From positions 12,345-76,344 of IMG/VR virus record IMGVR_UViG_3300027800_000004: 64,000 nucleotides of DNA; one strand, 5' to 3'. This DNA comes from a virus. Shown here piece by piece: positions 40,453 through 56,559 of the stretch; position 1 is the stretch's first letter, and each line of letters begins with the position of its first letter. A program made the translations under genes and the position numbers. The notes beneath the pieces are model-generated. The model searched no databases. It was not told the origin of the DNA and saw nothing but the letters and a program-made list of their open reading frames with translations.

Positions 40453-40533
40453 AAAAAACCCCCTCATTGGAAAAACGAGGGGGCCGTTCTTGCTATGAAC
40501 AAGAAAGCAGAACATACAGTCGGCATCTGTATG
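40453..40533 (-). ncRNA. Candidate stand-alone small RNA (about 80 nt, three hairpins) with anti-AUG loop
   Basis: TAACTTTG box at 40538-40545; hairpin CAUACAG/CUGUAUG; hairpin UUCUUGU-UCAUA-GCAAGAA; terminator CCCCCUC/GAGGGGG + U6. Confidence 0.6.
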
Positions 40534-42095: not shown

Positions 42096-42156
42096 AAAAA
42101 AAGGGGGAGGGTTAGAAAGTCAGGTCAGACCCTCCCCGGAAACATGGAAAAAAGTA
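42096..42156 (-). ncRNA. Terminator with upstream anti-AUG tract; candidate 3'UTR small RNA
   Basis: UUUUUUCCAUGUUU followed by a GGGGAGGGU/ACCCUCCCC stem (16-nt loop) and U7. Confidence 0.45.
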
Positions 42157-43957: not shown

Positions 43958-44284
43958 TTAGGTGTTATCTTCATTCTTTACAACAGGTGGCATAACCTTA
44001 ATCTCCGGTCCCTTCTGTTCGGTCTTATCCACCTGCCCGGATACTAATCGTAGCAACTGATCAACCTCCACCCCTTCCCTGGCTACTATCACCAGGTACC
44101 AGTACAAGACATTACTCATGCTGATGATCTTGCTCATCCTCTCATACTCCCCTCCAAACTTATTCCGGGGATCCAGACTTAAATTCATCAGTAACATGGC
44201 ATCATGCAGCTTGTTTAGGACATCCTTGCCATCTTCTGCCTTTAACTCCTTCATCTGTGCAACCAACTCTTCTACTGTTCTCAT
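43958..44284 (-). CDS. Hypothetical protein (108 aa)
   Basis: ORF with AACTAAAAACTAAGAGAT leader. Confidence 0.55.
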   Translation of the reverse strand: MRTVEELVAQMKELKAEDGKDVLNKLHDAMLLMNLSLDPRNKFGGEYERMSKIISMSNVLYWYLVIVAREGVEVDQLLRLVSGQVDKTEQKGPEIKVMPPVVKNEDNT

Positions 44285-44296
44285 ATCTCTTAGTTT

Positions 44297-44578
44297 TTAG
44301 TTCCTGTTATATCCACTCATCCTTTCCCTTCCATTTACCCTCTGCTTTCCCTTATACAGCGTAAAACTACGAAAGATCATATAATCCCCCTCTACTAATA
44401 CATCCCTCTTCTTCCTGCTGAATATGTACGTTAACCGGTCCCTCTTTATTCCCGTCATCCCTTCCAGTGTTACCAGGTTCGTGCAATTACTCACCATACA
44501 GTCTGTCAAATCATCCGTTATCGCCTTTCCCCCCAGGCAAACTACTGTGTAAATCCTCTGTATCCTCTTCCGGTTCAT
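44297..44578 (-). CDS. Hypothetical protein (93 aa)
   Basis: First gene downstream of the TAGCTTTG box. Confidence 0.55.
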   Translation of the reverse strand: MNRKRIQRIYTVVCLGGKAITDDLTDCMVSNCTNLVTLEGMTGIKRDRLTYIFSRKKRDVLVEGDYMIFRSFTLYKGKQRVNGRERMSGYNRN

Positions 44579-44623
44579 AATCGTGTAAAATCAGCCATTA
44601 CAACTTAGCGGCCCGTACACTTG

Positions 44624-44631
44624 CAAAGCTA
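44624..44631 (-). promoter_or_regulatory. -7 promoter box TAGCTTTG for the leftward operon
   Basis: TAnnTTTG match followed by CA, about 45 nt upstream of ATG 44578. Confidence 0.5.
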
Positions 44632-44639
44632 ATTTAATT

Positions 44640-45139
44640 TACGACATAGGACTACGCAAAATGGTAAAAAGTTATTAACAAGTAATTAATTTTATACCAA
44701 AGTGAGCGTCTGCCTGCGGTCTATGTATATATTTCAGGCTCGGTCGCGCGAACCCAAATCGGATTTGCGTACCCGCCCCCCCTGCCTGGGCCTCTCCAGG
44801 CGTTTTGTGTCCGTGCCTTTAAAGTGGTTCTGCCCTGTCCAACAACAAAATAAAGCGTTCTGACCTGTTGTTGATAGGGTAGGGGAGAGGATCTATAAAC
44901 ACAATGCCTTCATGTTCTATTTAACATAATGATAATTATGGGCAATGTAGTCAGCCATCATGTCATGCCTGTCTGAGTGTGTCATCCCTGCATCCTGTGA
45001 GCCTGTAAATGTGGCCTCTTTTGTGCTTGATACAATTCAATGAACGTACATAATGAATGGTGTGGATGATGCGTTAAATGGGTTGAAATGCTTAAATTTG
45101 CGTGTTAAATGGGTTGTTAACCTCTTGAGAGTTGCATAA
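44640..45139. other. Non-coding strand-switch region, possible genome terminus/packaging site
   Basis: Longest gene-free stretch; GC-rich patch with ACCCGCCCCCCC near 44771; repeat GTTAAATGGGTTG twice near 45073 and 45104; TAAATTTG box at 45093-45100. Confidence 0.4.
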
Positions 45140-45691
45140 ATGAATGAGAACCTGTCCCCTGCGCCATCCTTGCCTCCTTCTCTGGCTTATCTGTATTCAA
45201 ACCTATCAATGGAAGAACAAAGGGTCTTTCATAAGGTGTTCAATAGTATGTGGGGTGTTGTTGCTCCCTTGAAGCGGTTCGTTCATCATGGTGGTGTCAT
45301 GTATGCCTATTGGGTTGCTGATAAACTGCGTGAAGAACATAACCTCACCAATGTGGAGTTATCCCTGCTCATGTATTTGTATCATGTGTCTGGTGGTGGC
45401 AGACAGGTCATTGATGGTGTAGATCTCCTCGCTGCTCCCTCCTTCCCCTGCTCGTATAACTATTGGATGGTGTTGTCCGGTCAGTTTAAACAACGTGGTT
45501 ATATCGTGCGTTCTGTTCGTAACCCTGCTAAACCATATACATCTGGGTATCGTGCAAAGGGAATGAGATACATAAGACTAACCGACAAAGCAATTAACTT
45601 GATACATGATATGGATAGAGAGTTGTACAGGCGGTTGCGGTCTTGTACGTTCAACGATGTGGTGTGTGGATATGGAAAAGGGCAGATATAA
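45140..45691 (+). CDS. Winged-helix (MarR-like) DNA-binding protein (183 aa)
   Basis: HNLTNVELSLLMYLY...QFKQRGYIVR...IRLTDKA pattern. Confidence 0.55.
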   Translation: MNENLSPAPSLPPSLAYLYSNLSMEEQRVFHKVFNSMWGVVAPLKRFVHHGGVMYAYWVADKLREEHNLTNVELSLLMYLYHVSGGGRQVIDGVDLLAAPSFPCSYNYWMVLSGQFKQRGYIVRSVRNPAKPYTSGYRAKGMRYIRLTDKAINLIHDMDRELYRRLRSCTFNDVVCGYGKGQI

Positions 45692-45724
45692 CTCTGCCCT
45701 CTGTCCTGTGGTCTTATTTGAGGT

Positions 45725-46090
45725 TTAAATAACTCCCATTGCAATCCCCTGTTTCAGCATGTACTCTGAACTGCACCAATGTATTTGATTAATGATAACA
45801 TTGATGTTCGTCTTGTGGTCTGCTTCATTGCCTTCATCATCCATGCCAATAATCATTGACTTGCCAAGAATAGCATATACAAAGCCATTGAACATCCATC
45901 CGGCCTGTGGTGCATCCTCATTGAACTCAATCCATGCCTCTTCGTTGCAGTATAGCACATCTCTGTTAGGATAAGTGATAGGTGCTTCAATCATGTGGCA
46001 GTCTAAGAGCCTGTAAATGTCCTTGAGGCTTCCGGTTGTTTCAACCTGTGTTACTTCCTTTGTGTCTGGGTTAATTAAAATTGCTTTCAT
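45725..46090 (-). CDS. DUF3846-like protein (121 aa)
   Basis: MKAILINP...SLKDIYRLLDC..IE...LYCNEE...ILGK..IIG.DDEG pattern. Confidence 0.6.
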   Translation of the reverse strand: MKAILINPDTKEVTQVETTGSLKDIYRLLDCHMIEAPITYPNRDVLYCNEEAWIEFNEDAPQAGWMFNGFVYAILGKSMIIGMDDEGNEADHKTNINVIINQIHWCSSEYMLKQGIAMGVI

Positions 46091-46102
46091 TGTCGTGTGT
46101 GT

Positions 46103-46348
46103 TTATAGGTTATTAATCAGTTGCATTAATTCATCCGGTTTGCGGTCATCCTTGACGTTGTTACAGGCAAGTGCATAGAATATTGAACTCCCCATAACAA
46201 GATTGTCATAGGGGTCAATAATAGGGTCAATGGTCTTAATCTCATTGACATTTAACCATGTTGATTTTGGTTCGGTTGTCTTGAAATAGCGTTCTTCTTT
46301 TGAGTGCCATATCCATGACCATGTACATTTAAGAATGTGTGTTCTCAT
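46103..46348 (-). CDS. Hypothetical protein (about 81 aa)
   Basis: Likely ATG at 46348; leader contains AAACACAC. Confidence 0.45.
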   Translation of the reverse strand: MRTHILKCTWSWIWHSKEERYFKTTEPKSTWLNVNEIKTIDPIIDPYDNLVMGSSIFYALACNNVKDDRKPDELMQLINNL

Positions 46349-46352
46349 CTCC

Positions 46353-46598
46353 TTATTTATTAGTGTGTTTGACTTCAATTATAGCCTTCCAACATGAGTC
46401 GCAAACATAGTCAGAAGGGTATGGGTCTATGCAGTTCTGAAATGCCACCCATTGTTCGGGCGTGTACTCTGGGATTGCCTCCTGTTCTCTCCGGTAGTCA
46501 CCTACAAATGACATGATTAACAGGGTAATGAATAAGGCCAACGTAACAACGATTAGGCCGATGTTCATCTGTTCTTCTACGTTCTTGGTTTTCATCAT
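46353..46598 (-). CDS. Small membrane protein with CxxC (81 aa)
   Basis: One TM helix and CDSC; leader AACACACACTAAAACACG. Confidence 0.5.
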   Translation of the reverse strand: MMKTKNVEEQMNIGLIVVTLALFITLLIMSFVGDYRREQEAIPEYTPEQWVAFQNCIDPYPSDYVCDSCWKAIIEVKHTNK

Positions 46599-46619
46599 CT
46601 TGCGTGTTTTAGTGTGTGT

Positions 46620-46769
46620 TCTGCGTTGTTTGATACTGCAATATTATACTATATAATAACACGAACAAATTTATTTTGACGAATAGTTCGTTTTTTTTGA
46701 CGAACGGATTTGTTGGTTTAATATATTAGTGTATCTTCACATCGTATTAATAACATAATAACACACACA
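46620..46769. promoter_or_regulatory. Divergent early promoter region with TTTTGACGAA direct repeat
   Basis: AT-rich gap between divergent operons; TTTTGACGAA occurs twice near 46674 and 46695. Confidence 0.5.
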
Positions 46770-47429
46770 ATGAACACACGACAATTAGAATTGCAAGAAC
46801 CAGATGCTAAACTGCTCTACATGGGTAAGTCAGCATTGTCAGACAGGGACATTATGTCTTTAATTCTGGCAGGGAGTGACAACAAGAACAAGGCTGACAA
46901 GGTATTGAAAGCCTCAGATTTCAATTTTGATAGTATGTCAAAGTATTGTTACACCGATTTGAAAGCGTTCGGATTATCCCATTTACAGGCCGTTCGCTGC
47001 ATTGCAGTTATTGAGTTCGCCAAGCGGTTGAATATACACAGGGTTGACGAACAGACACAAATTAGGTCAAGTTCAGACATCTTTGCTTACATGTCCCCCA
47101 TCCTCTCAGACCTTGACCATGAGGAATTTTGGGCAATCCTGTTGAACAGGGCAAACCGCATCATTAAGCGTGTCAAAATCTCACAGGGTGGCATAGCGGG
47201 AACGGTCACCGACATCCGCATATTGTTCAAACATGCCATTAATGACCTTGCCTGTGGCCTTGTGGTATGCCATAACCATCCCTCTGGCAATACCTCTCCC
47301 TCTGATAGTGACATCCGCATAACTCAGAAGATTAAGGAGACAGGGAACATTATGGACATACAGGTATTAGACCATGTAATTATCGCCAAGAGTGAACACT
47401 ATTCCTTTGCAGATAACGGAACGCTATAA
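46770..47429 (+). CDS. radC: RadC-family JAB/MPN-domain protein (219 aa)
   Basis: G..ALSD, HEEFWAILLNRANRII, SQGGIAGTVTD.R, HNHPSG...PS.SD and LDHVII motifs. Confidence 0.92.
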   Translation: MNTRQLELQEPDAKLLYMGKSALSDRDIMSLILAGSDNKNKADKVLKASDFNFDSMSKYCYTDLKAFGLSHLQAVRCIAVIEFAKRLNIHRVDEQTQIRSSSDIFAYMSPILSDLDHEEFWAILLNRANRIIKRVKISQGGIAGTVTDIRILFKHAINDLACGLVVCHNHPSGNTSPSDSDIRITQKIKETGNIMDIQVLDHVIIAKSEHYSFADNGTL

Positions 47430-47451
47430 CACTAACTAACACACAAATAAC

Positions 47452-47775
47452 ATGGAAACAATTTACATTTTCAACTACTCACCGAAGGCCATTGTTGTCG
47501 TGGGTGACACCAAGCCAATTCACGGACTACTCAAGAACGCAGGGGGCAAATGGAACGCCCGATTAACCGATTTAAGGACAGGGAACAAGTTTGGAGGTTG
47601 GGTATATCATCATACTCGTTTGGCTTCCATACAGGCCACATTAACGGCCAATGCAATCAAGTTCGCAATGGAGAGGCCGTCAAGCCTCTCCTCCCTCTCA
47701 TCCACAGGTCGGGATTATATCCAAGACCCTGCTGAAATAGATGCTGACAACTTTTGCCAACGTAACAATATCTGA
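47452..47775 (+). CDS. Hypothetical protein (107 aa)
   Basis: YSPKAIVVVGDTKPI...LK..GGKWN..L...GWVY, a pattern recurrent in phage proteins. Confidence 0.6.
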   Translation: METIYIFNYSPKAIVVVGDTKPIHGLLKNAGGKWNARLTDLRTGNKFGGWVYHHTRLASIQATLTANAIKFAMERPSSLSSLSSTGRDYIQDPAEIDADNFCQRNNI

Positions 47776-47777
47776 AC

Positions 47778-48161
47778 ATGGCACAGACAGGACTATTCAC
47801 AGGCGAAGAGATGCGTGGTACAGGTCAGATGAACATGCTGAACTCCATAGACCACCAAGAGGACAGGATTAAAAGCCTCCGCAAACAGGTACACCATTAC
47901 CATTATGATGCAGGGCATGGATGGTTAGAGGTGGAACTTGCTGACCTTTCAAAATTAGGCATAAGCCATGCTATCTCCGGTTTCTCATTCAGACATGGTG
48001 ACAAAGCATATTTGGAAGAAGATAGCGATGCGGTTCTCTATATTAACACACTCTTCCCGAACCGACATGTTGACCCCGAATATCCGATATTTCAAGACCA
48101 CATGAGGGGTATAAATGATGGTGACAACTCACACATCAGAAGATACGCACACTACAAATAA
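47778..48161 (+). CDS. Conserved phage hypothetical protein (127 aa)
   Basis: DAGHGWLEV...ISGFS...YLEEDSDA...SHIRRY motif pattern. Confidence 0.6.
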   Translation: MAQTGLFTGEEMRGTGQMNMLNSIDHQEDRIKSLRKQVHHYHYDAGHGWLEVELADLSKLGISHAISGFSFRHGDKAYLEEDSDAVLYINTLFPNRHVDPEYPIFQDHMRGINDGDNSHIRRYAHYK

Positions 48162-48211
48162 CATGAACAACGCCTCCCTGCTACGGCAGGGGGGCATAAA
48201 AACAAAAGACA

Positions 48212-48409
48212 ATGGCAATACTTATTAGAATTGGAGACAGAGTACAACGCAATCAAGTCGGTGACTATACTCATGGCCGTAGAGGAGATGTTGTTGATAT
48301 TAATGGTGAAAGACTGAGGGTAAAATGGGATATGTTCCCAAGTGGTGTAATGATGAAAACCCCTGTTCGTACATGGGTGAATGTAAAGAGACTTGTTAAA
48401 ATAGGATAA
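48212..48409 (+). CDS. Small SH3/KOW-like protein (65 aa)
   Basis: IRIGDRV...GRRGDVVDI...RVKWD pattern. Confidence 0.5.
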   Translation: MAILIRIGDRVQRNQVGDYTHGRRGDVVDINGERLRVKWDMFPSGVMMKTPVRTWVNVKRLVKIG

Positions 48410-48418
48410 CACACAAAC

Positions 48419-48661
48419 ATGAAAAAAACATATCATATATCAACCTACAAAGAGGTTTTTATTGAAGCAACCACCAAAAAAGAATGTATTGCTATAATGA
48501 AGCAATATGAGCAAAAGGGGTGGAAAGCTGATAAGCCTATTAGAAAAGGAGATTGGGATAGTTCTGGTTTAATTTACTATGTATTTATGAGTAAAGAAAC
48601 AGGCGGATATATCAATGCTCCTCCTACCGACATAACTGCGAACCCTCATACATTTAATTAA
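48419..48661 (+). CDS. Hypothetical protein (80 aa)
   Basis: ORF with AACACACAAAC leader. Confidence 0.55.
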   Translation: MKKTYHISTYKEVFIEATTKKECIAIMKQYEQKGWKADKPIRKGDWDSSGLIYYVFMSKETGGYINAPPTDITANPHTFN

Positions 48662-48684
48662 TAAATCTTTAAACACACAAAACA

Positions 48685-49959
48685 ATGACAACTACACAGA
48701 TTAGTACCAAAGACAACCGCACACCTATCTATTACATAGGTCTTGTGCGTGAAGGCCGTAAACTCATCATACAGGCCAAAGAAAGCGTTGATGAGTTATC
48801 ATGTGAGATAACTGACTACTTAGGGCCAAGACAGGTAAGCAAGGCCACGATTGAGGCAAATAAGACCATCCTTCTGGAAGGCTTTAAGGCCGACCCGAAA
48901 TACCGCAACTGCGACATGGTTGAGGTACAAGAGCCGGAAGAGGTTTACACAAGGCCGGAGGTCACAAAGTTCAAACAGATAGCATACCTTGAGCAGATGC
49001 AAAAGAAAATGATGGACTTAAACCAAAGTATGCACGACTTAAACATGCTTTGGCAGAAGGATATGCAGTTTGACTTGGATATGAACGATTATCTTGCCAA
49101 CCAATACCCTTTTAACTTCTCTTTTGATGACCTTGTTATAGAGGCTGATGTTTGGTATCAGAAAGGTTGGGTTGCTTTAAATCAAAAGATAAAGGTATTG
49201 CAGGGGTATCCGGCTGATAAGGTGTACGGCACACAGAATAACGAGCAGAAGGTTGAAGAGCCTTCTGCTCCCTACTACACTCCCGAAGAGGCACAGGGCA
49301 AATGGATATGCGCCTACGATACAATGTGCGGTGGATGGGATTGTGTCCGCTATTCCGGTGGTGACAAAGATGGCTATCCTGTCCTGTATGGCAGTAAGAG
49401 AGAGGTTGAGGCTGATGATTTCTTTGATGGTGAGGATGACTTTGCAATATTGGCTACTGAGTTCATTGAAGGCCGCAAGGCTTTCTTTGGTGCTAATGGC
49501 CTACACATTGAAGGCATACCCATAGTTAAAGGCTACCGGATTAAGGGCAACAAGACAACCATGAGGGCAGAAGAACCGGAGGCAAAGTATGAGATTAAGG
49601 TTGCAAAGGCATGGCAGAGTTCGGAGTTCTTCCCAAATGGCCTTGACATCATTGCTCTGGAGTTAGATTACAGGGACAGAATAAAATTACTTGGTGCAAT
49701 AGAAAAGTGCAAATTGTATGGCTATGACCATATAGCCGTTCATGCAGGGAGAGGAGCAGAATATCTCACAAATGAGGGAGATGAGGTTGAGTTTTACACC
49801 GATGTTGAGTATTTTAAAGTATTCAATGATTGTGTATATTTCTATGCACAGAGCAAGTATGATAGCGGTTGCCAAGTTGAAAGCGAACGCATTGTAATTA
49901 CAAACAACTTGGCTATTGAGTTACCCGACCATGTTGAATACGAAGTTGAACAACAATAA
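48685..49959 (+). CDS. Mosaic hypothetical protein (424 aa)
   Basis: Long ORF with AACACACAAAAC leader. Confidence 0.6.
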   Translation: MTTTQISTKDNRTPIYYIGLVREGRKLIIQAKESVDELSCEITDYLGPRQVSKATIEANKTILLEGFKADPKYRNCDMVEVQEPEEVYTRPEVTKFKQIAYLEQMQKKMMDLNQSMHDLNMLWQKDMQFDLDMNDYLANQYPFNFSFDDLVIEADVWYQKGWVALNQKIKVLQGYPADKVYGTQNNEQKVEEPSAPYYTPEEAQGKWICAYDTMCGGWDCVRYSGGDKDGYPVLYGSKREVEADDFFDGEDDFAILATEFIEGRKAFFGANGLHIEGIPIVKGYRIKGNKTTMRAEEPEAKYEIKVAKAWQSSEFFPNGLDIIALELDYRDRIKLLGAIEKCKLYGYDHIAVHAGRGAEYLTNEGDEVEFYTDVEYFKVFNDCVYFYAQSKYDSGCQVESERIVITNNLAIELPDHVEYEVEQQ

Positions 49960-49970
49960 TAACACACACC

Positions 49971-50444
49971 ATGAAAGCAACAGAGACATTTAAAGGCGTT
50001 ATCAAGGCTTATTGCGATGAGAGGGCGTTATCAGATTTCCCCTTCTCTGAGGCATTAAAGAAGGCCGATAGGAACATTGAGGATTGTGTTACATACATTC
50101 TCAATGAGGTCAAGAAAAGCGGATGCGAAGGCTTTGCTGACCAAGAGATATTCAACATGGCAGTACACTACTATGAGGCCGAAAAGGTTGAGATAGGGGA
50201 TAAGTCTATTAGTGCCAACGTGGTGGTGAACCATCATATTGACAAGCCAAAGCCAACTGCCATTGCCAAGTCAGACAAGAAGGCTTCCGCACCCAAGACA
50301 GAGAAGAAGGCAGATACCAAGCCAACCATTGCTCCGATGAGTGTCATCAAGAATATTACAGATAAGTATTTTGATGCCAAGAAGGAGGAAGAACCAAAGA
50401 AGGATGGGGATAAGCCTCAGTTCATTCAAACCTCATTATTCTGA
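49971..50444 (+). CDS. pcfK: PcfK-like protein (157 aa)
   Basis: MKATETFK..IKAY...IEDCVTYILNEVKKSGC.GFAD.EI..MAVHYY...QTSLF pattern. Confidence 0.85.
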   Translation: MKATETFKGVIKAYCDERALSDFPFSEALKKADRNIEDCVTYILNEVKKSGCEGFADQEIFNMAVHYYEAEKVEIGDKSISANVVVNHHIDKPKPTAIAKSDKKASAPKTEKKADTKPTIAPMSVIKNITDKYFDAKKEEEPKKDGDKPQFIQTSLF

Positions 50445-50448
50445 TACC

Positions 50449-51744
50449 ATGAGGCCAAAGACAGAGATACAGAAGGAAGTTGACAGATATAGTCACCACC
50501 TTCACAAATTCACGGCAGAACAGAAGAGGTATGCCTACGACAATGTGTTTACTGCCCATGTCTATAAGACAAAGGACAAGGCCACCTGTCTGACATGCGG
50601 TCATACATGGGAGGATGCTACCGATAAGGCAAGTCTTCTCCATTCTATTGGCGGTTATACCTGTCCCAAGTGTGCCAGGCACTTGACCGCCCTCCCCACC
50701 ATGCAACGTACCCTGCATGACAAGGGGTACATTCATCAGTTCATCACATTCAAGAACTACCAAGTGGTTCGGACATGCTTTATAAAGCGTTCGTGCAAGG
50801 CAGGGCAGAAGGTAGAGTACAATTTCAATGAGATCATTCAGCATTGGATAAGAGAGGATGGTAAGCACGTTGTCCGTTCTGTCCTGTATCAAGCAATGGG
50901 ATATAACGCAGACGCATGGTGTCTGGGTACAGACATAGATATAAGAGGTGATGCAGATAAGTATTATCAACATGCCAAGAACGTATTCCCCAACAAGAGC
51001 ATATTGAAGGTCATCCGCAGAAATGGCTACAAAGGTGGTTTCCATGACCTCCACCCTGCTTATTTCTTCCATGTGATACTGACCTACCCGATGGCTGAAA
51101 CACTCTTAAAAGCCAAGCAATACACCTTATTGAGTTATTGGAGTGTCAATCGCATTAAGGAACTTGAGAAGTATTGGCCTCAGATTAAGATTTGCATCCG
51201 CAATAACTACATCATTAAGGATGTTGGAACATGGTTTGACCAACTTGAACTGCTTGAATACTTTGGCAAGGACATCTTCTCCCCTGCGTTTATCTGCTCC
51301 CCCACCCTCAAGAACGACCATCAGAGGCTCATTGACAAGAAAGAGAAGATCATGGAGGGCAAGAGGATTGCCGAACTCAAGGGCATGATAGCGAAGGCCA
51401 ATATACACTACCGCAAGAGCAAGGAGAAGTATTTCAATCTCCGGTTCTCCAATGGCAACGTGGATGTTGTTGTTCTCAACAATGTGATGGAGTTCTATTT
51501 GGAGGGCAAGGCACACCATCATTGTGTGTTCACCAATGAGTATTACAAGAACGAGGATAGCCTTATCCTGTCAGCACAGAGACAGGGCGAGAGGCTTGAG
51601 ACTATTGAACTCTCCCTGCGTGAGATGAGAATACTCCAAGCAAGAGGTCTTCAGAACAAGGAAACCAAGCACCACAAGGAGATCATTAAACTTGTTGAAC
51701 AGAACATTGGAACAATCCGTAAATTAGCACAGAGAGTAGCATGA
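50449..51744 (+). CDS. pcfJ: PcfJ-like protein (about 431 aa)
   Basis: MRPKT start, CLTCGH/CPKC, AETLLKAKQ, EFYLEGKAHHHCV and ETIEL...QARG motifs; start set at ATG 50449. Confidence 0.85.
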   Translation: MRPKTEIQKEVDRYSHHLHKFTAEQKRYAYDNVFTAHVYKTKDKATCLTCGHTWEDATDKASLLHSIGGYTCPKCARHLTALPTMQRTLHDKGYIHQFITFKNYQVVRTCFIKRSCKAGQKVEYNFNEIIQHWIREDGKHVVRSVLYQAMGYNADAWCLGTDIDIRGDADKYYQHAKNVFPNKSILKVIRRNGYKGGFHDLHPAYFFHVILTYPMAETLLKAKQYTLLSYWSVNRIKELEKYWPQIKICIRNNYIIKDVGTWFDQLELLEYFGKDIFSPAFICSPTLKNDHQRLIDKKEKIMEGKRIAELKGMIAKANIHYRKSKEKYFNLRFSNGNVDVVVLNNVMEFYLEGKAHHHCVFTNEYYKNEDSLILSAQRQGERLETIELSLREMRILQARGLQNKETKHHKEIIKLVEQNIGTIRKLAQRVA

Positions 51745-51950
51745 GTTGGGAACAGAACATACTAACCGCCCAAGTATCTGTAAACAGATGTGGCTGGGCA
51801 TTGAACGTGCGTTCATTTAATAACAATGAAAGTGATTTCAAGAACATAGATGAACGTAACGGGTATATAAAGCAAGAGGCAAGAGAGGCTATTAAAGTCC
51901 TTTCACAAGCACTTGTAGAACTTGAAAATCAATTAAATTTCGTACCATGA
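51741..51950 (+). CDS. Hypothetical protein (69 aa)
   Basis: ATGA-coupled ORF. Confidence 0.5.
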   Translation: MSWEQNILTAQVSVNRCGWALNVRSFNNNESDFKNIDERNGYIKQEAREAIKVLSQALVELENQLNFVP

Positions 51951-52168
51951 AAACGCCAATAGAAATACTCTTAGACAACTTGGATTACACGCCAACAAAC
52001 GCAGAGCCAAATAAGGAAGGACTGCCCTATGTCACCCACGAAGGTAAACTACAACTTGGCGATATTACTATCAGTGTATTGGTATTGAGTACAGGCCAAA
52101 GGATAATACCCAAAGAAGAAATAGAACGACTATTTGGGAAGGACATACAACTAAATAAGACACCATGA
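51947..52168 (+). CDS. Hypothetical protein (73 aa)
   Basis: LPYVTHEGKLQLGDITI.V.VLSTGQRII resembles the N-terminus of P63C-type phage proteins. Confidence 0.55.
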   Translation: MKTPIEILLDNLDYTPTNAEPNKEGLPYVTHEGKLQLGDITISVLVLSTGQRIIPKEEIERLFGKDIQLNKTP

Positions 52169-52419
52169 ACAGGGACAAGAAATATCTGGTGTACTTCACA
52201 CTACAGAAAGACGAAAAGGACAGGTACAGGGTTCTGATATCTGGAAGAGAAACGGATGTGTACATGACCAAGCATGATATTATGAAGGTCTTGACCGCAT
52301 CTCAGTTTAAGGAGTTCGTAAAAGAAATGGGTATCTTTGAGATTGAACACAGGGTTCTTGAACCATATCTCAAGCATGAGCCACAGACAAATCACAAAGA
52401 CCGGTGGAAGCCGGTATGA
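52165..52419 (+). CDS. Hypothetical protein (84 aa)
   Basis: ATGA-coupled ORF. Confidence 0.5.
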   Translation: MNRDKKYLVYFTLQKDEKDRYRVLISGRETDVYMTKHDIMKVLTASQFKEFVKEMGIFEIEHRVLEPYLKHEPQTNHKDRWKPV

Positions 52420-52490
52420 CATAACTCAAACCTTCGGGGATGAGAGAAGGAGGACAGGTTTTTGTGTGTTCCCTGTTCTCCTTCATTTTT
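52420..52490 (+). ncRNA. Terminator/candidate small RNA whose 13-nt loop is antisense to the early-gene AACACACA motif
   Basis: Stem GAAGGAGGACAGG (52446-52458) / CCTGTTCTCCTTC (52472-52484), loop TTTTTGTGTGTTC, then ATTTTT. Confidence 0.6.
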
Positions 52491-52526
52491 AAGCAATCAA
52501 ATAACCATCAAATAAAAACTAAAGAC

Positions 52527-52805
52527 ATGAGAGAGTTAACAAAAGTACAAGACAAGATTGAAGAGATGGCTAAAAAAGAACTTGCCAATGAAATCCTCAA
52601 ACTTGATTCAGAGTTCAGAGATTTGATACGGAAGTACAACCACATTACCTGTGATGTAACTATTAAGGTACAGGACAAGGATGGAAAATGTTCAATGCCA
52701 TACCTCGTTCAACTCATCAGAAATGAGGCTTTGGTTGAAAGCATCAAGGACAAATACTTGCCGGGGTATGTAGATGTAATGGTCACTAAACTACTTCAAA
52801 AATGA
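52527..52805 (+). CDS. Hypothetical protein (about 92 aa)
   Basis: Start reset to ATG 52527 (AAAAACTAAAGAC leader) because the longer ORF overlaps the terminator. Confidence 0.5.
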   Translation: MRELTKVQDKIEEMAKKELANEILKLDSEFRDLIRKYNHITCDVTIKVQDKDGKCSMPYLVQLIRNEALVESIKDKYLPGYVDVMVTKLLQK

Positions 52806-53044
52806 AATGCCCATACACCGACAAAGTAAACGCCTGTGTCTATCTTGATGAGATGACAGAGGATGACCGGAGATATGAATGTCCGGACTGCCCCCACTAC
52901 GAGCCAAGATCGTACTACGACAGGCCAGAGGAAGAGAGTTTCATAATCTCAGTCCTATCAGTAGCCTTTATTACAATAATCCTGATGGGTTTTGCGTATA
53001 TTGGCATCAGAATAGTTAAGATCGCAATCCAATGGTTTCAATGA
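52802..53044 (+). CDS. Small Cys-rich membrane protein (80 aa)
   Basis: CP...C...CPDCPHY plus a C-terminal TM helix. Confidence 0.5.
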   Translation: MKCPYTDKVNACVYLDEMTEDDRRYECPDCPHYEPRSYYDRPEEESFIISVLSVAFITIILMGFAYIGIRIVKIAIQWFQ

Positions 53045-53316
53045 GAAGGCACAGAAAGGCCAAGTTCCCGAAAGAATTTCATGCTCCACAAAAGATGAAG
53101 ATTATCCGTGTAGATTACCACACCCAGATAGAAGTGCCGGAGAACATGCCAGACGATGTAGCCATTGAACGATTTAACTTGAGGAGGAGAGCAGGTCAAC
53201 GAATAGGTAATGTGCCGTCAGAGGTCTTAAAAGAGGCAAAAGAAGAAGGGATAGAGCCTGTGATAGACGTTATCCCTTCCGAGGACAGTCCCCTCATCGA
53301 AGAAGAGGACGATTAG
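53032..53316 (+). CDS. Hypothetical protein (up to 94 aa)
   Basis: Last plus-strand ORF before the convergent terminator. Confidence 0.5.
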   Translation: MVSMRRHRKAKFPKEFHAPQKMKIIRVDYHTQIEVPENMPDDVAIERFNLRRRAGQRIGNVPSEVLKEAKEEGIEPVIDVIPSEDSPLIEEEDD

Positions 53317-53324
53317 CATAGCGA

Positions 53325-53352
53325 GAGGCGGTTATTTTTTACCGCCTTTTCC
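53325..53352 (+). terminator. Intrinsic terminator at the convergence point
   Basis: AGGCGGT/ACCGCCT stem followed by TTT. Confidence 0.65.
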
Positions 53353-53398
53353 TTTTCCTTTTTTCTTACCACCACATTTTTCGCAAGTCATAGCATTG

Positions 53399-54484
53399 TT
53401 ATTTGGTTAATTCATCTGTGCTTCCCAATGAATTGATCTGAAAGTGAAGATCAAAAGACAGGACAGGTGCGGAAGCATTACCGCCTGTATTATATGGACA
53501 AGTGCCGGTAAATTGAAGACTGGCATTTGATGTGTCTCTGTAAATCCGGAATTGGATGATGTCAGAAAGCGTACTGCCAACGGGAGCAAGAATAGGTAAA
53601 GAGTAAGAAATCTGATGAATGGTCGTGCCAGGAGTGTAAGGGAAGGCCAGACTATTGCATTTCAAGAATGTCCAAGCCGTTACTTTTGCTGCTGCGTTAA
53701 TCTGCCACCGATATTGAAATAGAAAGTTTGGAATATAGTTCTTTGCTTGCATCCAATGAATGTGAGGATAAACAGATACGGACAAATCCTTATCATGGTT
53801 AAGCTGCACGTTCTTATAAATCATGTCAGCCAAGGCAGGGTTAGCATTATAAGCCGCATTGAAATCAAAATCAACCGTACTTTCTGTTATGTTAAGAGTA
53901 ATGCCAGCACCGCTTCTCTGGATAGACAGAGCATCCCCTAATTCATCTCGCCAAGGCCGTGCATCTCCCTCCATTACCTGATGTCCGGTAGCATCAAACT
54001 CCGTTGTGTCTGGTGCATCTCCCATGATCTGATGATCGGTAATACCATAACCATCAATAGTCGTTGGCTTACCTGTAATGTTATCCCAGGCGATTGTATC
54101 TTCATCGCTGAATTTGGTAATGTATTCCATGCTTAAGCCAACAGCAACTAAAGAGTTATAGCCATTTGCCATAGCAACACCAACCTTTAAGTATGATGTC
54201 TCAGAACCAGATAATGCCCTTGCAGTTCCTCTTATCCCACCATCTCCCGAAATTAAAGATCGGATGACATCTCCTTGTTTACATCTGCCATTGATGAAAA
54301 CAAAGACCAAGCCAGAGGTTACTACTTCACAGAGAAGGCCATTTGATATGCCTCCCTCAGTAATAACACCGAGCATCTTCTGTTCGTTATTGCCAAGCAA
54401 GGCAAAGGAGTTTTTTTGGACAGGATTAACCTTCACAAGCCGACCAAGAACCGAACTATTTCCGGTAGCGTTAATGACCTTCAT
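53399..54484 (-). CDS. Structural-type protein (DUF2190-like N-terminus, fibre-like linker, beta-sandwich C-terminus; 361 aa)
   Basis: GVITEGG...CEVVTSG; WDNITGKPTTIDGYGITD fibre motif; QLNHD...YPHIHW...FDLHFQINSLGS. Confidence 0.55.
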   Translation of the reverse strand: MKVINATGNSSVLGRLVKVNPVQKNSFALLGNNEQKMLGVITEGGISNGLLCEVVTSGLVFVFINGRCKQGDVIRSLISGDGGIRGTARALSGSETSYLKVGVAMANGYNSLVAVGLSMEYITKFSDEDTIAWDNITGKPTTIDGYGITDHQIMGDAPDTTEFDATGHQVMEGDARPWRDELGDALSIQRSGAGITLNITESTVDFDFNAAYNANPALADMIYKNVQLNHDKDLSVSVYPHIHWMQAKNYIPNFLFQYRWQINAAAKVTAWTFLKCNSLAFPYTPGTTIHQISYSLPILAPVGSTLSDIIQFRIYRDTSNASLQFTGTCPYNTGGNASAPVLSFDLHFQINSLGSTDELTK

Positions 54485-54992
54485 CGAATGTTGGATTTTC
54501 TTTGGTTAAAAGTTTTTTACACTCATCAAGGTACATGGTATTTAGTTTGGTGATGATCACATGTACCTCTTCCGGAGAGTATTTAATACCGATTAAAAGA
54601 CCCTTGTGTGAAGGGAAGTATTTCTTATACTCTGCCTTGAGTTCTTCCTTCAGAGCCTCTAATTTGGCCCAATCAGCCTTGTTTATGCCCCCAGATGCCG
54701 CCTCAACCTCTTTAGAATACAATATTCGCGCTTCTTCCGTACCATCATCGTAAAGGGCATGCTCTCCGGGCGTAAGGAGAACGATATTCTTAAGGTAGTT
54801 GCGAAAATACGGGAATTTGTTCTGCCCTTTGGCTAAAACGTGGGCAAACATATTAAAGAAGAGGGGTGTAGCCTCATAACTGCGAAGCCAGAAGCCAGTA
54901 ATGAAGGATTTCTTTGGTCTGGTGATCCAGACAATCCGAAAGGTTGCTCTTAAACTGAGATCAATCGGAATGATAGTATTTTCTTTTTCCAT
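54471..54992 (-). CDS. HNH-like nuclease-fold protein (173 aa)
   Basis: KSFITG...FAHVLAKG...FPYFR....NIVLLT..EH..YD pattern. Confidence 0.5.
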   Translation of the reverse strand: MEKENTIIPIDLSLRATFRIVWITRPKKSFITGFWLRSYEATPLFFNMFAHVLAKGQNKFPYFRNYLKNIVLLTPGEHALYDDGTEEARILYSKEVEAASGGINKADWAKLEALKEELKAEYKKYFPSHKGLLIGIKYSPEEVHVIITKLNTMYLDECKKLLTKENPTFDEGH

Positions 54993-55005
54993 AATTCAAA
55001 GATAT

Positions 55006-55070
55006 AAAAAAGGAGGCCACACCATCTCAGTGAAGCCTCCCTTAACTAAAAACAGTAAGTAAGAGTTATC
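55006..55070 (-). ncRNA. Candidate stand-alone small RNA (about 65 nt) with anti-leader seed
   Basis: TAACTTTG box at 55075-55082; CUCUUACUUACUGUUUUUAGUU; GGAGGC/GCCUCC terminator + U6; second box TATCTTTG at 54997-55004. Confidence 0.55.
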
Positions 55071-55083
55071 GGGTCAAAGTTAG

Positions 55084-56559
55084 TTAATTTCTGTTTAACA
55101 ACTCGCATACCTCCGCTATTGTTGCGAACTGGCAGAAGGCTTCCTTATTTGCATAATGGGCAAACTGCGGAAGATCTCTTTGTAATTCAATAAACCTCTC
55201 GTTATTCAGAGATGGAGTTAATCCGGAGAGAACATGGTACAACTCTTTCTTCGTTGCAAAGTCTCTTTCGTTGCCCTTATTGAAGGCCGGCACAAACAAT
55301 TTGTACTTGTTCAACTCTGTGCTGCTTGGCTGAATGAGTTCATCCTTAACATTAGTATCTGCCTCCGGGGTCGGATTAATATACATTTTCTCTTCTGGTG
55401 TCAATGCAGCTTCTTCAAACGGCTTGAGATATTCCCTCAGAGTACCTTCCTGATGTGCAAAGATGATCTCACGGAGTTTCTTGTTGGTATTCTTCCCAGG
55501 AATGAGCATAAGAGCCTCTGACAACTCACTGTCTTCTTTGATTATCTTAAGGAGATCCTCTGTCTCCATGTCTGTCATTTGGGCAATAGTAAGTTTCCGA
55601 AACGCCTGGTCAGGTGTTATAGGATTTTTATGAATATCTTCCTTTGTCCCAAATTCGTGTCCCCTTTCCATTTCATCCACAAGAGGTCCAACTTCATGTG
55701 GTCCTTCATAAACAGGCATCTCTTCAATAGGTGTTGGTGGTATAAAAACCGGAGGAGGAGTTACCGAAACATTGGTTGCATCAACAGGCGCAAAGTCCGG
55801 AGCCTTGATCTTGTCAACTGCTCTTTCCGTGATCTTTCTGCTTCTTCCCTCTGCAAAACTCCTGTCCGGGATCTGCAAGGACACACCATTACCCTGGTCA
55901 ATCACAACCGTCTGGTCAACCGGCATGTCAGTCGCTTCTTCCGTAGTGTAGATGCCGGCCATGACATCAGGGAACAAGTCACGCGCAATAAATCCCAATG
56001 CCCGGTAGTTAATCATTCGTGCCGGATATTTGTACCAAGACGATGACTTGTACTTCCACCCATCCTGTCCATTGACCTGTTGCTGAGTAATCCACAAACC
56101 GGCTCTCTTGGCATTTGCAACAGAGAATGATCGTGTCAAGGTCTGTCCATTGTCAGATCTCGCTGCCGTAATCATAACAATGAAATTCTCTTGTTCGATA
56201 GAACCCTCTTCTTTCTCAACCCAGGATCCGGATTTAAGTTTTCCGGAATTGAAGATCATGCTCTTTGCCAGGTCCCCTTTGATAGAAAGCAAACCATTGA
56301 CAGGAATGATATGCTGCAATGCTGTCAGAGGCGGCAACTGCAACTGATATCCCTGTATCAGAACCGCAACAACTGATGCGGTCTTGCCCTTATCAAAGTC
56401 CGGCTTTCCATCCGGTAGTTTCTCATAGAAGTGGTTCGGGACCAACTTACTCTTCAGTAAGATGTTCGCAAAGTTCTCCATCTTCTCAACTGTCTCGTAG
56501 GCATCCTCCACGAATTTCGGAAGCCTCGTTTCTGCTTTCACTAATACATTGTCGCTCAT
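55084..56559 (-). CDS. RecT/Red-beta-like single-strand annealing protein with long C-terminal extension (491 aa)
   Basis: LLKSKLVP, GYQLQLPPLTALQHI..VNG, FSVANAKRAGL and W.KYPARM..YRALGF.ARD.FPDV..GIYT.EE motifs. Confidence 0.85.
   Translation of the reverse strand: MSDNVLVKAETRLPKFVEDAYETVEKMENFANILLKSKLVPNHFYEKLPDGKPDFDKGKTASVVAVLIQGYQLQLPPLTALQHIIPVNGLLSIKGDLAKSMIFNSGKLKSGSWVEKEEGSIEQENFIVMITAARSDNGQTLTRSFSVANAKRAGLWITQQQVNGQDGWKYKSSSWYKYPARMINYRALGFIARDLFPDVMAGIYTTEEATDMPVDQTVVIDQGNGVSLQIPDRSFAEGRSRKITERAVDKIKAPDFAPVDATNVSVTPPPVFIPPTPIEEMPVYEGPHEVGPLVDEMERGHEFGTKEDIHKNPITPDQAFRKLTIAQMTDMETEDLLKIIKEDSELSEALMLIPGKNTNKKLREIIFAHQEGTLREYLKPFEEAALTPEEKMYINPTPEADTNVKDELIQPSSTELNKYKLFVPAFNKGNERDFATKKELYHVLSGLTPSLNNERFIELQRDLPQFAHYANKEAFCQFATIAEVCELLNRN

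Follow-up and report, generated by a model that had tools for sequence, protein, structure and literature searches.

A conserved terminator-like hairpin with a loop complementary to presumed early start regions: a candidate anti-leader RNA in an uncultured phage of probable Bacteroidota type

The DNA analysed here belongs to a 76,344-bp IMG/VR virus record which has direct terminal repeats and is estimated to be complete, and the window, i.e., the whole stretch of 64,000 nucleotides under study, corresponds to bases 12345 to 76344 of that record. With a G + C content of 42%, the phage encodes an SU10-like major capsid protein, beta-helix and LRR tail proteins, RecT, a YqaJ nuclease and a DnaB-like helicase. 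The DNA runs containing it come from freshwater and freshwater-sediment metagenomes, no RNA run being among those listed for it, and no cultured relative was found in INPHARED when this was searched by DNA and by protein. Throughout the genome the start regions lack a Shine-Dalgarno sequence and have A-rich sequence, and A-rich start regions without Shine-Dalgarno sequences are typical of Bacteroidia (PMC6847099). It is probably an uncultured phage of Bacteroidota type from a clade with genomes of about 72-78 kb that probably infects Bacteroidota. The sole taxonomic hint at the host that was found, and a weak one, is that a complete-looking relative of 72,687 bp (G016; L129 / G016:C255) was binned in a Prolixibacteraceae MAG.

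The locus comprises two divergent gene sets and, downstream of the longer one, a terminator-like hairpin followed by further genes on the same strand:

46090-45725, minus strand: gene for a DUF3846 protein, the third of three small minus-side genes
46348-46103, minus strand: small gene (81 aa)
46598-46353, minus strand: small gene (81 aa)
46599-46769: intergenic region from which the two early gene sets diverge, and in which the early promoters presumably lie
46770-52419, plus strand: early operon upstream of the hairpin, coding for a RadC-like JAB protein, four proteins of unknown family, a PcfK-like and a PcfJ-like protein, and with three small genes
52426-52443, plus strand: remnant of the 3' end of a gene of about 138 aa (TCAAACC...GGGGATGA)
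52446-52484, plus strand: terminator-like hairpin with a 13-bp stem and an open 13-nt loop (67.7 bits with the covariance model R1, see below)
52446-52458, plus strand: 5' arm GAAGGAGGACAGG, pairing with 52472-52484
52459-52471, plus strand: loop UUUUUGUGUGUUC (= TTTTTGTGTGTTC), the proposed anti-leader seed, with a core conserved in about 20 related hairpins
52472-52484, plus strand: 3' arm CCTGTTCTCCTTC, giving 13 pairs, one of them G-U
52485-52490, plus strand: U-tract, A and then T5, directly after the stem; a T-run stands here in every homologue too
52527-52805, 52802-53044 and 53032-53316, plus strand: three genes downstream of the hairpin
53323-53350, plus strand: canonical short-loop terminator ending the plus-strand run

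The DUF3846, RadC-like JAB, PcfK-like and PcfJ-like genes lie together at 45725-51744, here in a phage, and such a gene set is typical of the leading regions of Bacteroidota conjugative elements. The tetranucleotide GATC, which occurs 304 times in the window or once per 210 bp, is absent from 45422-50832 (5.4 kb) and from 51681-52908 (1.2 kb), and this desert coincides with the module and reaches just beyond the hairpin. It is because of the gene set with its likeness to conjugative leading regions, the divergent layout and the GATC desert that the module is taken to be early. Within the divergent intergenic region, TTTTGACGAA is present twice (46674-46683 and 46695-46704, 21 nt apart, with an inverted TTCGT in between), and this pair may be an operator.

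By direct reading, the hairpin at 52446-52484 has the 13-bp stem and the 13-nt loop described in the original prediction, and its loop is, as stated there, the exact antisense of a leader motif, the loop core UGUGUGUU being the reverse complement of AACACACA. RNAfold of 52420-52500 gives -28.6 kcal/mol with the loop fully open (z = -3.7; none of 200 shuffles as stable), and the loop is open in the minimum-energy as well as in the centroid fold. The G + C-rich 13-bp stem (-19.9 kcal/mol), directly followed by A and U5, agrees with an intrinsic terminator; the loop, with 13 nt here and 10-18 nt in homologues, exceeds the about 3-8 nt of short-loop terminators, and a consensus terminator scan allowing loops of 3-8 nt did not list the hairpin. 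The unusual loop length that had been emphasised is thus real but not unique, as other terminator-like hairpins with loops of 11-16 nt and stems of 9-10 bp, followed by a T-run, are found at 42104-42137(-), 55009-55043(-) and 40457-40485(-). A long terminator loop seems to be usual in this phage; the loops of these other hairpins are not GU-rich.

In turn, the assumption that the hairpin ends the main early run has to be given up, since three plus-strand genes follow and the canonical terminator lies at 53323-53350. The distance from the stem to the next ATG (52527) is 42 nt, and because this gap leaves no room for a promoter the three downstream genes must be reached by run-through, so that termination at the hairpin can only be partial. 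The hairpin is therefore presumably an internal leaky terminator and not the end of the plus-strand run. In most relatives (G001 L051:7842-8255; G009, G013, G012 and G004) the gene after the hairpin codes for a secreted SLT-domain transglycosylase and is followed by genes for small membrane proteins, an arrangement resembling a lysis-type cassette to which run-through at the hairpin would be the only access; this genome carries an unrelated 92-aa gene where the relatives have the transglycosylase.

Several other accounts of the hairpin region were considered and set aside. No conserved promoter-like box was found upstream of the hairpin; TATCTTTG at 52332-52339 falls in coding sequence conserved as protein, and G001 is without such a box, so that a promoter of its own for a separate small RNA gene was rejected, the candidate box not being conserved. 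Likewise rejected was the loop as the leader of a minus-strand ORF at 52201-52422(-), which is antisense to a conserved plus-strand gene and has no counterpart in G001. Pairing of the loop with a downstream AAACAC into a pseudoknot is a weak candidate, present in about half of the homologues and missing both here and in G001. The hairpin is absent from Rfam 15, and cmscan of 44000-56000 at E <= 1 gave one irrelevant hit only.

Relatives for comparison were ten long related records from capsid-based searches and further viral and metagenomic loci collected with a conserved protein of about 90 aa (53032-53316 in this genome). A search with the exact hairpin string gave no match in the viral contig set, PcfJ alone as the protein search anchor matched no relatives, and the protein of about 138 aa had no match in the genome contig set. 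A hairpin with a GU-repeat loop and a T-run is nevertheless present at the same place in G001, G009, G012, G013, L116 and several short contigs, and altogether it recurs at this location in about 20 related phage contigs. Its usual site is directly past the stop codon of the gene of about 138 aa, 0.6-1.4 kb upstream of the gene of about 90 aa. In this genome and in L116 the former gene has been lost while its final approximately 20 nt and the hairpin remain, which implies that the hairpin is independent of the protein of about 138 aa.

A covariance model, R1, built from five well-aligned copies of the hairpin finds 18 distinct copies at E <= 2e-5 among the sequences gathered in this analysis, along with two weaker matches in syntenic position, one in G007 and one in the MAG-binned contig (G016). 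It also recovers L116 and the loops with shorter repeats, both of which a scan for TGTGTG loops had missed. MAFFT alignments of the hairpins gave no consensus structure because stems and loops vary in length. In the R1 alignment, 94% of the cells are paired, and compensatory changes affecting both partners are seen in 10 of the 13 pairs. For the stem, a covariation score of 0.605 is obtained, compared with 0.206 in shuffles (0 of 500 reach 0.605) and at most 0.18 for slid partners; the alignment underlying it is fitted to the model, and an independent, loop-anchored tabulation agrees. The stem of L116, a close relative, is identical to that of this genome save for a single double change, from A-U to G-C. 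The two G-C pairs that close the loop do not vary across homologues. The homologous loops measure 10-18 nt and follow the pattern UUU-N(0-3)-(GU)2-4-UU(U/C), this core being kept although the stems are unrelated. Since the stem covaries while the loop core stays conserved, the comparison indicates that selection acts on the element as a folded single strand whose loop is sequence-specific. In particular, a loop varying freely among relatives, which had been named beforehand as the observation that would speak against the idea, was not seen among the about 20 related hairpins.

The complement of this loop is found at the starts of the early genes. The motif AACACACA occurs 12 times in the window against about 3 expected, i.e., a four-fold over-representation (2.99 +/- 1.68 in dinucleotide shuffles, with 0 of 100 shuffles reaching 12), and has zero copies in the remaining 12 kb of the genome. 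Ten of the 12 copies fall within 46096-52470, and eight are situated at early-gene starts, on both strands and all in sense orientation, ranging from 17 nt upstream of the ATG to the first four codons. Several stand in intercistronic gaps of 9-23 nt, too short for a promoter. The start-proximal matches are:

46096-46103, minus strand: leader AACACACA upstream of ATG 46090 (DUF3846 protein)
46336-46343, minus strand: copy of AACACACA within codons 2-4 of the 81-aa gene that begins at 46348
46613-46621, minus strand: leader GAACACACA (9 nt) upstream of ATG 46598 (81 aa, first minus-strand early gene)
46760-46767, plus strand: leader AACACACA before ATG 46770 (RadC-like JAB protein)
46772-46779, plus strand: second copy GAACACAC in codons 1-4 of the RadC-like gene
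47438-47447, plus strand: leader AACACACAAA (10 nt) before ATG 47452
48408-48417, plus strand: leader AACACACAAA (10 nt) abutting ATG 48419
48672-48682, plus strand: leader AACACACAAAA, an 11-nt perfect loop complement, 2 nt before ATG 48685 (424-aa protein)
49961-49968, plus strand: leader AACACACA before ATG 49971 (PcfK-like protein)

All leader matches that had been quoted (48672, 47438, 48408, 46760, 49961 and the minus-strand leaders of 46090 and 46598) are real, and the copy at 46336-46343(-) comes in addition. The loop is complementary to eight start regions over 8-11 nt. When its duplex strength was computed for 86 start regions of the genome (median -5.3 kcal/mol, sd 2.5), the six strongest, at -11.7 to -12.9 kcal/mol, all belonged to genes of the early module.

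Among the other copies, that at 51523-51530(-) falls within the PcfJ gene and does not form a leader. There, on the transcript that also carries the hairpin, TCATTGTGTGTTC at 51519-51531 (codons HHCVF) duplicates the final 10 nt of the loop; as a second seed, TTGTGTGTTC within PcfJ (51522-51531) was rejected, since it is missing from the PcfJ of L116 and probably due to chance. Metagenomic relatives skip or replace gene cassettes of the module, with joints (48168/48671, 46100/46359 and 49475/49968) at or beside AACACACA leaders, so that gene swapping in the early module seems to break at start regions. An invertible segment between inverted copies of 8-11 bp is a weak candidate, as there are many copies on both strands and no strand-changing joints among those listed. 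The leader of the first early gene, TTTG-N5-TTAACCAAT-A(n)-ACACA...ATG, is conserved in G004, G008, G009, G012, L103 and G016 (e.g., L132:6245-6285), which suggests that there is a -7 box of Bacteroidota type and that the motif is carried by a 5' UTR about 25 nt long.

Whether loop and leaders change together was assessed by taking, for every loop, its longest perfect complement among the own-genome start regions within 9 kb upstream, adding these lengths up over genomes and comparing the sum with permuted pairings. Examples of such own-genome pairs are:

G000 (this genome): loop UUUUGUGUGUU, own leader AACACACAAAA, 11 nt
G001: loop AUGUGUGUGUU, own leader AACACACACAU, 11 nt
G012: loop AUGUGUGUUUU, own leader AAAACACACAU, 11 nt
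G007: loop GUUGUGUUGGUU, own leader AACCAACACA, 10 nt, against no more than 8 nt in each of the other genomes
L103: loop CUUGUGUUU, own leader AAACACAAG, 9 nt
L102: loop UUGUGUUUU, own leader AAAACACAA, 9 nt

For 12 genomes, the own-pairing sum is 114 compared with 103.2 +/- 3.5 for permuted pairings (P = 0.0024), and for the nine genomes with distinct loops it is 89 compared with 78.1 +/- 3.3 (P = 0.0008); these values come from few and related genomes, with gene starts called by a simple ORF rule and one start of G013 added by hand. Relatedness does not explain the excess because common ancestry alone creates no complementarity. The MAG-binned G016, obtained after the hypothesis had been formed, provides an out-of-sample case: its loop is UUUUAAGUUGUGUUUUUA, and four of its early start regions contain UAAAAACACA(A), complementary over 10-11 nt. 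In short form, a loop with UUGUGUUUUUA is matched here by leaders with UAAAAACACAA. The tracking extends to positions outside the shared core, as in G007 (UUGGUU/AACCAA) and G016 (UUUUUA/UAAAAA). The proposal that loop and leader motif co-vary in relatives, which had been put forward as a check, is thus borne out by both permutation results and by G016.

Both loop and leader are of low complexity (GU versus CA repeats), which makes chance complementarity commoner than for random 8-mers. A shuffled-loop control was significant only for this genome and L116 (about 0.01) and not for G001, G009 and G012, because U-rich shuffles match A-rich leaders. The rank correlation between the lengths of the GU run and the CA run is only suggestive (rho 0.60, P 0.05, n = 11). 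In G004, G013 and L099 the own loop match is just 8 nt, and some hairpin-bearing phages have one or two matching start regions only. In G008 the leader motif is present and no hairpin was found, so that the motif occurs in more phages than the hairpin and has a role of its own; it is probably primarily a strong, unstructured start region which the hairpin would exploit.

Taken as a whole, the comparative data support the view that loop and early start regions are functionally linked through their complementary sequences. The interpretation given in the original prediction is supported in part, its stable RNA of about 70 nt, the repression by pairing and the early-to-middle switch being putative. 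The reading favoured here, with a probability of roughly 0.55, is that the 3' end of the early operon encodes an anti-leader RNA, which would block initiation by pairing with early start regions. Transcripts ending or trimmed at the hairpin would leave a stable stem-loop with a U-tail, whose loop (UUU-N-(GU)n-UU) would form a duplex of 8-11 nt with the A/C-only motif which, on both of the divergent early transcripts, stands no further than about 20 nt from early-gene start codons. The duplex at the start region would then block 30S binding and initiation, or make a cleavage site. Translation in Bacteroidetes makes no use of Shine-Dalgarno sequences and is tuned by start-region structure and upstream adenines, and because initiation in Bacteroidia needs open, A-rich start regions such a duplex should block it (PMC6847099). 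Early protein synthesis would be shut off late and in a self-limiting manner, since the seed is transcribed last in an operon of about 6 kb. We infer that the element acts as an RNA, that it does so as a stable 3' fragment and in trans, that its effect is repression, and that the module is early; action as RNA is indicated by a motif that is sense-only and start-codon-proximal, with a complement that is obligatorily single-stranded. As an 11-bp helix would be strained inside a closed 13-nt loop, the true contact between loop and leader is probably shorter than 11 bp, or the stem has to open.

A clearly less probable explanation, though the best placed of the alternatives, holds that the hairpin is a leaky terminator or stabiliser whose conserved GU-rich loop is bound or cut by a protein, either a host or phage RNA-binding protein or an RNase, that the CA-rich leaders are independent, unstructured start regions enhancing translation, and that the complementarity is a by-product of two motifs of low complexity. 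Such a separation of the two elements would fit the commonness of long-loop terminator-like hairpins in this genome, the weakness of the shuffled-loop controls in some genomes and the preference of Bacteroidetes for unstructured, A-rich start regions (PMC6847099), and also the apparent ability of terminator loops to act without base-pairing (PMC11979758). It would likewise fit G008, with its leader motif and no hairpin found. However, independent elements would not be expected to yield loop variants that track the leaders of their own genome (P = 0.0008 to 0.002), including flanking positions beyond the shared core (G007, G016), and the other long-loop hairpins of this genome are without GU-rich loops.

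Somewhat less probable still is pairing in cis, in which the 3'-terminal loop folds back on the 5' leader or on internal starts of the same early mRNA, with no free small RNA, and locks translation or protects the mRNA ends. Inhibition by fold-back is known for hok mRNA, and hairpin and plus-strand targets do share one transcript; moreover, the motif of the first plus-strand gene sits in a short 5' UTR with a conserved leader (G004, G008, G009, G012, L103 and G016), and it is this gene whose start region matches in several phages that have only one or two matches. Against this, the divergent minus-strand transcript, which a loop acting in cis could not reach, carries three of this genome's eight targets as well as the best one of G016.

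Finally, it is improbable that AACACACA is a double-stranded DNA site of a phage regulator at early starts and terminator, irrespective of orientation, since, although a single co-evolving DNA-binding protein would shift all sites together and the motif does cluster round the divergent promoter region, every one of the eight copies near a start has sense orientation and stands either 0-17 nt from the ATG or within the first codons, with several in intercistronic gaps of 9-23 nt inside the operon, the lone antisense copy is always exactly in the unpaired loop of a compensatorily kept stem, which a duplex-DNA site does not need, and no DNA-binding domain was found in the proteins of the module.

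An anti-leader RNA of the kind proposed would combine features of several known regulators. The c4 antisense RNA of phages P1 and P7, for which Rfam has a C4 family, and the CI RNA of P4 are phage immunity RNAs. Like these, the present candidate would be a phage-encoded, small structured RNA that comes from the transcript of its own targets and has a loop or seed complementary to several sites in ribosome-binding regions. It differs in showing no match in sequence or structure in the Rfam scan of 44000-56000, in that the seed would lie 3' of the targets, in the loop of the terminator-like hairpin belonging to the operon, and in that the targets would be many Shine-Dalgarno-less starts on two divergent transcripts of an early lytic module and not of an immunity system. 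With sRNAs derived from 3' UTRs such as CpxQ, DapZ and SroC, which are Hfq-dependent and in which the seed is normally single-stranded and upstream of the terminator, it would have in common that the regulator comes from the 3' end of an mRNA, shares its intrinsic terminator and has a seed conserved above its surroundings; here, in contrast, the loop of the terminator would itself be the seed, directed at cistrons further upstream in its own operon.

In S. aureus, RNAIII uses C-rich hairpin loops against Shine-Dalgarno sequences, whereas here a GU-rich loop would face CA-rich leaders without them. The loops of the intrinsic terminators of sRNAs can drive regulation, as for SdsR, RseX and ArrS on fepA, and do so 'likely without base-pairing' according to the authors (PMC11979758). 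With both cases the present one shares that the loop of an intrinsic terminator hairpin would be the active part, and it differs from fepA in that a complementarity of 8-11 nt is conserved and co-varies. In Cluster K mycobacteriophages, a short conserved motif of 13 bp, the SAS, lies just upstream of the starts of a subset of non-structural genes (PMC3203893). The likeness to the AACACACA leader motif is one of placement only, by analogy, as sequence and host differ. We know of no complementary partner element for the SAS. In phage T4, early genes are shut off post-transcriptionally by a repressor protein, RegA, and an endonuclease protein, RegB (PMC3014915). The proposed outcome is similar, with many early mRNAs silenced at their start regions via one shared short motif, but the effector here would be an RNA loop and not a protein. 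Compared with these known kinds, the new element would be a seed that sits in the loop of its target operon's own terminator and is aimed at a shared start motif without a Shine-Dalgarno sequence.

The ribosomes of Bacteroidia ignore Shine-Dalgarno sequences, and translation control in these bacteria and in their phages is little known. To this field the present analysis adds a conserved, covarying RNA hairpin outside Rfam together with an explicit set of targets, and the covariance model R1 offers a marker of the early-module boundary in an uncultured phage clade. In practical terms, hairpin and motif might be used in Bacteroidota as a compact pair of repressor and target for controlling genes. 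Should the pairing prove real, one short RNA loop would control a whole set of early genes via a motif shared by their start regions, and it would be another case of an operon's own terminator loop acting as a regulator. A more tentative extension, rather less likely than not, is that the RNA acts as a transcription-distance timer, by which both divergent early transcripts would be silenced only once the polymerase has crossed the whole operon. Such a timer, if true, would to our knowledge be the first RNA regulator of its kind in Bacteroidota phages, and would represent a general, protein-free shut-off for start regions without Shine-Dalgarno sequences that is conserved and co-evolves across an uncultured clade of Bacteroidota phages.
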